Source: Escherichia coli | Lineage (GTDB): Bacteria > Pseudomonadota > Gammaproteobacteria > Enterobacterales > Enterobacteriaceae | DNA: 64,000 nucleotides | Assembly (NCBI RefSeq): GCF_016026235.1 | Contig: NZ_CP065613.1 | Reading direction: 5' to 3' (one strand) | In this document: positions 60,402-61,727 of the stretch, piece after piece | Numbering within the stretch: the first letter of the stretch is position 1 | Layout of the letters: each line of letters starts with the position of its first letter | Translations under genes and position numbers: made by a program | The notes under the pieces: generated by a model | The model's database searches: none | The model's input: the letters and a program-made list of their open reading frames with translations, nothing else | Told to the model about the DNA's origin: nothing

Positions 60402-60691
60402 TGAAAACTTATAATGGCGAGAGAAAATACCGTGACTATTTACTCAGACGTTACAGCATTTCTCGTGAAGGTTACTTGATGAAAGATACTCACGGGGAAG
60501 TTTACCGGATTCGACCGAAGAAAGAAGGGAGGGATTATTATTTCGTCGATGGTGTGACAGATTTAAAGATTGACGCTTTGAGGTTTGCAGTGATGTATCA
60601 TTTTGATATCTGGGATTCAGTCCACCAGCTACGATTAAAAGACGGTGACCCCAATAACTTAAAGGCCACCAATATTATCACAAAACGTTAG
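60401..60691 (+). CDS. Small NUMOD4 / HNH_3-like (homing-endonuclease-like) protein, probably degenerate
   Basis: 96 aa with a TAATG overlap with the rep stop. Has YSISREGYLM (NUMOD4-like) and VHQLRLKDGDPNNLKATNI (HNH_3-like). The call rests on motifs only. Confidence 0.45.
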   Translation: MKTYNGERKYRDYLLRRYSISREGYLMKDTHGEVYRIRPKKEGRDYYFVDGVTDLKIDALRFAVMYHFDIWDSVHQLRLKDGDPNNLKATNIITKR

Positions 60692-60873
60692 TTTGTTTTA
60701 CCATCATCAATCGTAATTGTGATTTCATATTTGAAAAGCTTAATGCTGAAATTGAATCGTGTACTTTTGGCGATAATCATTTTTAAAAGCTGATACACCA
60801 GAAGCACCAGAAACACAAAGCAACCTAAGCTTGCGAATCTGTGAGATTCAGCAATTGTTTCAAGAAAGCCCAT
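60688..60873 (-). CDS. Small single-pass membrane protein (hypothetical)
   Basis: 61 aa with an ATG start and SD AAGGGG. TM segment LGCFVFLVLLVYQLLKMIIA. It has its own promoter, TTGTCA-17-TATTAT (60953-60925). Confidence 0.5.
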   Translation of the reverse strand: MGFLETIAESHRFASLGCFVFLVLLVYQLLKMIIAKSTRFNFSIKLFKYEITITIDDGKTN

Positions 60874-60924
60874 TAATTCCCCTTATTTATCAAAGGGAAT
60901 GACCTGTATCAGCCCCCTATAAAC

Positions 60925-60975
60925 ATAATATCATGTAAATGAGATGTTGACAATATGTTAAATAAATGTTAAGAT
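60925..60975. promoter_or_regulatory. Divergent promoter pair with overlapping -35 hexamers
   Basis: Plus strand: TTGACA (60947-60952), 17 nt, TGT-TAAGAT (60970-60975). Minus strand: TTGTCA (60953-60948), 17 nt, TATTAT (60930-60925). Confidence 0.55.
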
Positions 60976-61011
60976 TGTAGTATGAGCAAGAGATTTAAGG
61001 AGATTTTTGCA

Positions 61012-61302
61012 ATGACTCACACAGTTACGCGCCTTTTGCCAGAGGCATTTGAACGACTGGCAGCAATCAAAGCCAAATACCCTGATATGAAGCACACAGC
61101 GCTTGTTGGAGAGCTTTTAAAAGAGTCGGTAGCCCTGACCCCTTTCGATAACGTTAAGGGCGTTGCAGAGGGTTCTAAGGCCATCAGAATCACAACAGGC
61201 CAACTGGAACTACTCAAAGCACAGTCCGCAGTAGCAGGTTGCTCAATGATTCAGGTGTTAAGCGCGAAGGTTCATCAACTGGCGGATAGATTGGAGGTTT
61301 GA
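61012..61302 (+). CDS. Putative tandem ribbon-helix-helix regulator
   Basis: 96 aa from ATG 61012 with a strong SD AAGGAG. Two RHH-like segments (HTVTRLLPEAFERLAAIKAKY... and KAIRITTGQLELLKAQSAVAG...). The fold is inferred by eye only. Confidence 0.5.
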   Translation: MTHTVTRLLPEAFERLAAIKAKYPDMKHTALVGELLKESVALTPFDNVKGVAEGSKAIRITTGQLELLKAQSAVAGCSMIQVLSAKVHQLADRLEV

Positions 61303-61727
61303 TGCTATGTACATTTGATTATCATGCGTTTTATCGCCATAGAGGTCATCTTGTCCGTGAGAATAACGGAACATGGAAAGATTTAACTCGTAATGCTGAA
61401 CCCTTCACACACCAGCAATTAAAATCCCGCTTCTCCAGATGGAAGAATGCACCAGCAGATACTGGTGATTTTGAGATTACCCATACATTTGATTACGCAT
61501 CAGAAGATGACCTTCGCAATGCAATTAAGCTGATTGAAGACTTCAATACCTCAGAAGATGTGGATGGTGACAAATATAAATCCCGTGGTAACCGCTATAA
61601 CCGTGATGATATCACTCAGGCCATAAATGCTGGTCAATCTCAGCGATACATCACAGAAAAATATGGTATTTCACGGAGACAGTATTTCTACGTTAAATCA
61701 TTGATTAATAAGGACAATTCAAAATAA
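61302..61727 (+). CDS. Hypothetical protein with a C-terminal Hin/resolvase-type HTH
   Basis: 141 aa from ATG 61302, with a TGATG overlap with the upstream stop. The C-terminus reads DDITQAINAGQSQRYITEKYGISRRQYFYV. Confidence 0.55.
   Translation: MLCTFDYHAFYRHRGHLVRENNGTWKDLTRNAEPFTHQQLKSRFSRWKNAPADTGDFEITHTFDYASEDDLRNAIKLIEDFNTSEDVDGDKYKSRGNRYNRDDITQAINAGQSQRYITEKYGISRRQYFYVKSLINKDNSK

Follow-up and report, generated by a model that had tools for sequence, protein, structure and literature searches.

Among described regulators, three ribbon-helix-helix (RHH) proteins come closest to the locus analysed here. Arc of phage P22 represses two divergent overlapping promoters, Pant and Pmnt (PMC2724298), and CopG of pMV158, a small RHH protein encoded by the first gene of its operon, represses by occluding its own promoter (PMC2724298). 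TraY of F is a monomeric RHH pseudo-dimer that assembles as a train of three molecules on adjacent sites (PMC12117103). We have analysed a 64,000-nt stretch of an Escherichia coli genome (contig NZ_CP065613.1; hereafter the window), towards the end of which a gene for a predicted tandem-RHH protein and a gene for a small predicted membrane protein diverge from a shared promoter region. As in the P22 immI region (Arc/Mnt), the RHH gene is the first of a rightward operon and two sigma-70 promoters diverge and overlap. In immI the operator lies inside the core promoter, with one bound protein repressing both directions and autoregulating, and the candidate operator here would be placed likewise. 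The immI-type layout holds in the window and in most E. coli relatives, but not in the sub-lineages of E. albertii and of loci L014 and L016 (relatives are cited by locus number).

Based on the sequence features of this module, the integrity of its genes, the predicted folds and the pattern of conservation, we propose, with a probability of roughly 0.55, that it is the central transcription-control unit of a ~12-kb, low-GC, satellite-like island integrated by a serine recombinase in mdtG, and that the RHH protein co-represses both promoters. From the same observations we infer binding of the RHH protein to its repeats, the sign of the regulation, the activity of the promoters and the function of the membrane protein. 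In the mechanism envisaged, two back-to-back sigma-70 promoters would fire outward from a near-invariant core of 73 bp, and a monomeric tandem-RHH protein would bind four ATGTTAA-type repeats phased at 11 bp as a head-to-tail train. An asymmetric pseudo-dimer would suit asymmetric sites set head to tail, and the 11-bp spacing would set neighbouring molecules on almost the same side of the helix. Occupancy of all four sites would occlude the rightward promoter fully, along with the -35 hexamer and spacer of the leftward one. Binding would thus autorepress the RHH operon and hold down the leftward gene, i.e. Arc-like co-repression without a bistable toggle. The product of the leftward gene, a membrane protein of 56-62 aa with a predicted N-out/C-in topology, would be restrained further by a leader hairpin that sequesters its Shine-Dalgarno (SD) sequence.

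Divergent promoter core and phased repeats

The features that carry this proposal are the following.

60688-60873, minus strand: small gene, ATG to TAA, predicted 61-aa single-pass inner-membrane protein
60920-60926: inverted copy of the repeat, TAAACAT, overlapping the leftward -10 and start (inverted repeat I2)
60925-60953, minus strand: leftward sigma-70-type promoter, TTGTCA (60953-60948), 17-nt spacer, TG-n-TATTAT (60930-60925), predicted start ~60918
60933-60975, plus strand: four direct repeats with 11-bp phasing, ATGT(T/A) cores starting at 60933, 60944, 60955 and 60966, consensus ATGTTAA
60947-60975, plus strand: rightward sigma-70-type promoter, TTGACA (60947-60952), 17-nt spacer, TG-n-TAAGAT (60970-60975), predicted start ~60982
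61012-61302, plus strand: RHH gene, 96 aa, strand-helix-helix twice with a disordered linker at residues 38-55

The small gene and the RHH gene are separated by 138 bp (60874-61011). Both promoters in this intergenic region match the consensus at 10 of 12 positions and are among the five best of the 12 sites that a consensus scan detected in 57-64 kb. A preliminary description of the locus had placed them there, and the sequence bears out the coordinates, the 17-nt spacer and the TG of the plus-strand promoter, as well as the minus-strand promoter, which turns out to be preceded by TG, too. The -35 hexamers overlap as described, having 5 bp in common, which sets the predicted starts ~64 bp apart. 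The divergent unit as a whole is likewise supported, being conserved across the aligned loci. Its core (60903-60975, 73 bp) is the most conserved segment, with a mean pairwise identity of 92.6%, compared to 70% for the small open reading frame (ORF), 69% for its leader, 67.5% for the 5' untranslated region of the RHH gene and 86% for the RHH coding sequence. Within the core, the rightward -35 is invariant in 14/14 aligned loci, and the leftward -10 variants found in relatives (TATTAT, TAATAT and TACTAT) all keep TAnnnT. Upstream of the small gene, the other sub-lineages examined likewise have an extended -10 (TGnTAAAAT or TGnTATAAT), as seen by eye and, in L016-L019, by the scan.

From the leftward spacer, the four direct repeats extend across both -35 hexamers into the spacer and -10 of the rightward promoter. 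This pattern occurs nowhere else in the window and in none of 100 shuffles. Most related E. coli loci have it once, at the same place, and it is retained in both promoter variants. The divergent promoters of L016 and L019 have phased ATGTTAA repeats, too, and those of L017 and L018 have degenerate versions of them. As the repeats lie over both promoters, a single protein is predicted to shut both, with no toggle.

This placement bears on an alternative view of the module as a bistable lysis-lysogeny or immunity switch, in which one promoter would be occupied at a time, the RHH protein and the helix-turn-helix (HTH) protein encoded downstream of it would lock the rightward state, and leftward transcription would mark quiescence. 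Overlapping -35 hexamers and a very strongly conserved core are in agreement with such a switch, as is the location of the module, flanked by the replication genes on one side and the remainder of the island on the other, a position typical of immunity regions. The preliminary description had deduced from the overlap that polymerase occupancy is mutually exclusive. The overlap is, however, not conserved. In L016-L019, where one gene precedes the RHH gene in the rightward operon, the promoters read TTAACA-18-TATAAT and TTGACA-17-TAGTAT, the latter being the equivalent of the rightward promoter; both have a TG, and their -35 hexamers lie 7 bp apart. A rightward promoter is missing altogether from the E. 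albertii and L014 types. Overlapping -35 hexamers hence characterise the commonest E. coli form and do not define the module. In addition, repeats that cover both promoters predict co-repression, the HTH gene is dispensable, and the leftward product is a membrane protein and not a DNA-binding repressor, so that reciprocal repression is not apparent. Taken together, a switch of this type is distinctly improbable.

The predicted tandem-RHH protein

The gene proposed to supply the co-repressor is preceded by the strong SD sequence reported for it, AAGGAG, at 60997-61002, 9 nt before the ATG. In the AlphaFold2 model, the protein folds as strand-helix-helix, disordered linker and strand-helix-helix, with the strands paired as in the RHH superfamily. 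Structure comparison returned the relaxosome protein TraY as top match; the alignment extends over 73 residues for TraY and 71 for single-chain Arc, versus at most 44 for single-domain RHH proteins. From a library of viral structures, tandem-RHH regulators of archaeal viruses were recovered. Throughout the family, both predicted strands have invariant residues (HTVTR and KA-x-RIT), and the L016/L019 proteins, though far more diverged, keep HT-x-TR and K-x-IRIT. Helices A and B of RHH proteins are joined by a G-x-S/T/N turn; in repeat 2, G76-C77 is invariant and position 78 is S or T, and repeat 1 has the glycine-less YPDMKH. The family is tiny, with 37 clusters at 90% identity and eight representatives at 50% identity among 1.84 billion proteins. 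The earlier suggestion of two fused RHH repeats thus holds for the predicted fold, which contains both repeats, but not at the level of sequence profiles, where the protein has no match and its two halves are not detectably similar.

The resemblance to TraY raises the possibility that the repeats are a cis-acting site for DNA transactions, i.e. origin iterons for the O/DnaD-like initiator or a TraY-like architectural site serving excision, packaging or transfer, with the RHH protein as an accessory DNA bender. In line with this, a rep-initiator-like gene that matches PHROG replication-initiation families (E down to 7.7e-11) is located just upstream, and the region is AT-rich with helically phased repeats. 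The repeats coincide exactly, however, with two consensus promoters between divergent genes, and their 11-bp units are below the typical length of iterons, which are longer. Neither relaxase nor type IV secretion system (T4SS) genes, an oriT or a coupling protein gene were detected in any full-length element. Moreover, the repeats are present in L016-L019, in which an unrelated 184-aa gene takes the place of the O-like rep gene, and are missing in L014 and E. albertii although a gene occupies the rep position there. They are found also in L005 and L008, loci without the HTH gene. Since the repeats track neither the initiator-like gene nor the HTH gene, the RHH gene is their sole constant partner, though two sub-lineages keep it without repeats. 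We consider a role as a replication or transfer site very unlikely.

Several observations weigh against co-repression by the RHH protein from these repeats. The confidence of the AlphaFold2 model is moderate (predicted local distance difference test score 62, predicted template modelling score 0.53). The protein has no match in Pfam, NCBIfam or PHROG at E ≤ 0.1 and none in PADLOC, and its profile returned chance matches only among the sequences of the PDB, none better than E = 0.66. Comparison of its two halves with hhalign gave E = 0.22, i.e. no detectable similarity, which makes the duplication visible only at the level of the fold. The promoter scan as a whole shows no enrichment, with 12 sites versus 20.2 expected in shuffles, so that the functional case for the promoters rests on position and conservation and not on the match. 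The phased-repeat pattern was defined post hoc, after it had been seen. In the E. albertii and L014 types, where the intergenic region measures 85 or 58 bp, the RHH gene is kept with neither phased repeats nor a recognisable rightward promoter; the extended -10 of the small gene (identified by eye) is overlapped there by a single ATGTTAA or ATGTTTA. The strand residues of the E. albertii RHH protein are identical, yet the phased repeats are missing. The operator assignment is for these reasons not universal. Lastly, RNAalifold did not recover the SD hairpin from six leader alleles, the support for it coming from per-sequence folds only; this covariation test failed because insertions and deletions put the stems out of register in the MAFFT alignment.

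The small membrane-protein gene and neighbouring genes

Four further features surround the proposed operator and its two target genes.

60401-60691, plus strand: upstream 96-aa gene, last gene of the rep-like operon, whose transcript would converge on the small gene
60876-60884 and 60892-60900, minus strand: arms of the leader hairpin of the small gene, the 3' arm holding the SD sequence AAGGGG (inverted repeat I5)
60903-60912: conserved box CCTGTATCAG (GCUGAUACAGG on the leftward transcript), adjoining the predicted leftward transcription start
61302-61727, plus strand: 141-aa gene, N-terminal beta-rich domain and C-terminal three-helix HTH, translationally coupled to the RHH gene

In each of the 14 aligned loci, as in five others, the small ORF is intact, with pairwise ratios of nonsynonymous to synonymous substitution rates of 0.08-0.56. 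The best 19-mer hydropathy reaches 2.2-2.6 in every allele, and lysine and arginine are richer on the C-terminal side. These data support the single-pass membrane protein of the preliminary description as the product of a real, selected gene, and hydropathy and charge distribution predict an N-out/C-in topology for every allele. In the protein, the N-terminal motif ESHRFxSLG is conserved, the transmembrane (TM) segment spans residues ~16-34, and the C-terminal tail is basic and strand-like. Alleles A to D and the one from E. albertii are 44-80% identical; common to all are I-x-ES(H/Q)RF-x-S(L/F)(G/A), a single TM segment, a run of basic residues and a tail of strand-like character. A 9-bp tandem repeat (CACCAGAAG/CACCAGAAA) at 60796-60813 supplies codons for LVL in the TM-coding part, and database alleles gain or lose LVL units in frame, resulting in proteins of 58-67 aa; the length of the TM segment is accordingly variable by slippage. 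The gene is annotated as WP_000506009.1 in some RefSeq genomes and is often left unannotated by the Prokaryotic Genome Annotation Pipeline (PGAP). No Pfam, PHROG, NCBIfam or PADLOC family includes the protein, and its motif and tail match no catalogued family. At the same position and in the same orientation, L016-L019 have a TM protein of 58-62 aa with ~20% identity and a similar build, which is apparently unrelated. Every sub-lineage examined has a small membrane-protein gene on the minus strand, divergent from the RHH-gene operon.

That the alleles turn over so quickly while under purifying selection, and do so beside an invariant core, points to a specificity determinant exchanged as a cassette, and would fit an accessory membrane effector with a variable interaction partner. 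As a working guess, the protein may serve in superinfection exclusion or in manipulation of a helper phage and not as a lethal toxin. The preliminary description had considered a toxin-antitoxin, abortive-infection or defence function. In a pair of this kind, the small protein would be a lethal, depolarising toxin held off by RHH repression or neutralisation, and loss of the RHH protein would kill. The small size and single TM segment are compatible with this, as are the sequestered SD sequence, which is common to many type I toxins, the frequent lack of annotation by PGAP and a strong-looking leftward promoter overlapped by repeats. However, neither partner matches a family in PADLOC, Pfam, PHROG or NCBIfam, and PADLOC-DB models gave no match at E ≤ 0.1 for any of eight island proteins. 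The RHH protein consists of its two RHH repeats only, without a toxin-binding tail, and no toxin family is present in the operon. Furthermore, RHH proteins of 97-98% identity are combined with small-protein alleles of only 44% identity, and RHH proteins found with one and the same small-protein allele can be as little as 69% identical; given this free reassortment, the two partners do not co-evolve. L006 (NZ_CP027445.1) is a decaying island, with frameshifts in the initiator and RHH genes, an IS3 insertion and a truncated recombinase; the small ORF and its promoter are still intact there, and this is the only copy detected in that genome. As a single decaying element, L006 is weak evidence against a toxin. 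We also found neither an antisense small-RNA family in Rfam, which returned nothing at gathering thresholds over 57-64 kb, nor a dedicated antisense promoter-terminator, so that antisense RNA to the small gene could arise only by read-through from the convergent upstream operon. A toxin-antitoxin or abortive-infection pair is in our view unlikely.

In the leader of the small gene, RNAfold predicts SD-containing stems of 10 bp in allele A, 8 bp (of other sequence) in allele B and 5 bp in allele C. The adjoining box CCTGTATCAG is invariant in 14/14 aligned loci, though the neighbouring hairpin differs among alleles, and is found also in L024-L026, with a slightly altered form in L025. A LexA box was considered for it and rejected, as CTGT-N8-ACAG is missing. 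For a 5' box, GCUGAUACA, the pairing partner lies within the coding region in allele A (9 bp, inverted repeat I3) and at the 3' end in L024-L026. Its partner thus differs among alleles, and long-range RNA pairing is treated as unproven.

At its other end, the small ORF overlaps the TAG of the upstream 96-aa gene (60689-60691) by 4 nt, in agreement with the tail-to-tail overlap noted before, and because of this overlap the 3' end of the upstream gene co-varies with the small-gene allele. Terminator prediction returned nothing between these two genes; convergent transcription from the rep-like operon would thus probably restrain the small gene, too. No Pfam, PHROG or NCBIfam family could be assigned to the upstream protein; the label 'HNH-like' that it had been given finds no support in Pfam at E ≤ 0.1, the only match being DUF7271 at E = 0.035.

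On the rightward side, the stop of the RHH gene overlaps the start of the 141-aa gene at 61302 (TGATG), so the coupling described earlier is correct as far as the overlap goes, and the 141-aa gene has its own GGAGG at 61293-61297. The HTH attributed to its product is supported as well: a C-terminal three-helix HTH is predicted with confidence and resembles those of resolvases, TrpR, small terminase and sigma region 4, while the sequence profile gave chance matches only against solved structures. The RHH stop is directly followed by this allele, by a 128-aa allele (42% identical) or by unrelated genes. Being exchanged among loci, the 141-aa gene is accessory and not a fixed part of the module.

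The surrounding island and comparison with described systems

The module is the only obvious regulatory hub of the island in which it resides. The chromosomal flank, E. coli mdoH-yceK-msyB-mdtG at 97-99% identity, extends up to ~57341, from where the GC content falls from 51% to 38% until the end of the window. Related complete E. coli genomes reveal a compact element of ~11-12 kb with a fixed gene order.

57342-64000: part of the host island within the window, 38% GC, ended by the window edge
Element, first half: small serine recombinase, Dam-type methyltransferase, O/DnaD-like initiator, 96-aa gene, small minus-strand ORF
Element, second half: RHH gene, variable small genes, 235-aa gene, 70-aa gene, tape-measure protein, 'Dit-like' tail protein, large serine recombinase (minus strand)

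The full-length relatives are L002 (5300-17000), L003, L005, L014, L016-L019 and L027/L028. They show that the small gene, described as the only reverse-strand gene of the element, is so inside the window, but not in the complete element, where the large serine recombinase at the far end is encoded on the minus strand as well. At least four insertion sites are used (yecE, yciI/tonB, ymdF/wrbA and mdtG/lpxL), and the module is present in 126 of 5426 complete E. coli genomes. A scan of GTDB species representatives with the RHH alignment returned a single locus. A search of IMG/VR yielded four prophage-type contigs, all of them from isolate genomes, which is not evidence of particles. The 7-kb island part gave no megablast match in the phage and plasmid collections, and tblastn of the RHH, 61-aa and 141-aa proteins gave none in 50,697 phage records.

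A connection to virulent myophages is apparent from the tail genes. The 'Dit-like' protein (256 aa) has a counterpart in 261 Ounavirinae (FelixO1-like) virulent myophages, with ~70% identity across 98% of the island protein; in these phages the homologous gene directly follows the tape-measure gene, the same order as in the island. The TMP_3 tape-measure protein of the island aligns with theirs along its entire length at ~29% identity. Genes for capsid, terminase, tube and sheath were found in none of the island elements examined, and no full-length element has lysis genes; the small TM protein is thus not part of a holin cassette. Searches of the literature found no E. coli satellite that combines a tape-measure gene with a serine recombinase and no satellite of Felixounavirus. 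The island resembles an undescribed satellite or parasite of FelixO1-like phages, and it may live by parasitism similar to that of the phage-inducible chromosomal island-like element (PLE), in which case the module would be its control centre.

We note several other features of the island. The small recombinase is invertase-like. The Dam-type N6-adenine methyltransferase (58423-59085) has a C-terminal resolvase-type HTH (HTH_7/HTH_23, E ~3e-4), an unusual fusion that is kept in relatives. Just before the O/DnaD-like initiator gene, a promoter-like TTGCAA-17-TATAGT with TG (59190-59218) is followed by a terminator-like hairpin (59405-59433), which is kept also in E. albertii; the region 59190-59433 could exert leader attenuation or antitermination control on the replication operon. 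The best promoter match of the island, TTGACA-17-CATAAT (11/12, with TG; 62314 onward), is followed after ~10 nt by a terminator-like hairpin (62350-62372). Promoter and hairpin lie ~300 nt upstream of the 236-aa gene, all nearby Rfam matches are sub-threshold, and 62314-62372 could encode a short RNA or a leader. The protein of 235-236 aa (62678-63388; homologue in L001 at 17643-18353) has the RefSeq label 'transposase' without Pfam or PHROG support; it has weak coiled-coil-type matches only, plus DUF7384 at E = 3e-4 in one relative, and the label is probably an annotation artefact. Chi sequences (GCTGGTGG) are located on the minus strand of the island at 60622-60629 and 58789-58796. The former is kept in 13 of 14 aligned loci, the exception being the divergent L006, and an extra Chi follows the small-ORF stop in alleles B and C and in L024-L028. 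These sites may protect linear or rolling-circle island DNA from RecBCD.

The type of control proposed here is known, as an RHH protein acting on overlapping divergent promoters is the textbook case of P22 Arc. Less ordinary is the combination of an orphan tandem-RHH protein, phased direct repeats and a fast-diverging membrane protein. Arc is a dimerising chain of 53 aa with a palindromic 21-bp operator, whereas here a fused pseudo-dimer is found with four direct repeats; the leftward gene of P22 encodes the RHH repressor Mnt, whereas here it encodes a membrane protein. No antirepressor homologue was found downstream, and there is no detectable sequence similarity to the P22 Arc system. CopG acts on one promoter only, that upstream of repB, whereas the module described here has bidirectional promoters and a rep-like gene that belongs to another operon, upstream of it. 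TraY of F is a relaxosome accessory at oriT, beside relaxase and T4SS, while the island is without such genes and the context of the repeats is a promoter; identity to TraY is 12%. The tandem-RHH regulators of archaeal viruses (AvtR and relatives) have archaeal hosts, other operators and no sequence similarity to the RHH protein described here.

For the small protein, the nearest parallels are Hok/TxpA-type toxins and Sie-type exclusion proteins, with which it shares size, a single TM segment, SD sequestration, location on a mobile element and orientation opposite to the main operon. Unlike these, it has no homology to catalogued families, and no antisense RNA was found. At the level of the whole element, PLE of Vibrio cholerae is comparable, being likewise small and chromosomal, equipped with a large serine recombinase, devoid of capsid and terminase genes and apparently tied to a virulent myophage; for the island, this apparent tie is the tape-measure gene and the adjacent tail gene in synteny with FelixO1-like phages. 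No shared genes were detected between PLE and the island. A more far-reaching and less probable interpretation is that the module is the infection-sensing master control of an undescribed class of phage satellites in E. coli, E. albertii and Citrobacter, ~12 kb in size, integrated by a large serine recombinase and equipped with a tape-measure and tail gene of their own in FelixO1-like order. The tandem-RHH protein, bound as a train to the phased repeats, would then be the master repressor and the hypervariable membrane protein a new exclusion, defence or helper-manipulating effector, the alleles of which are swapped as cassettes across the invariant promoter core.

Should the small protein be inert, the locus would simply be a well-conserved autoregulated promoter region. 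The signal that releases the RHH protein and the role of the membrane protein could, on the other hand, open a PLE-like parasite-phage system in E. coli. A natural single-chain tandem-RHH protein that reads helically phased direct repeats is rare; if the proposed binding is true, the module would represent a compact, asymmetric operator-repressor pair and a clean system for studying how one set of sites controls two promoters.

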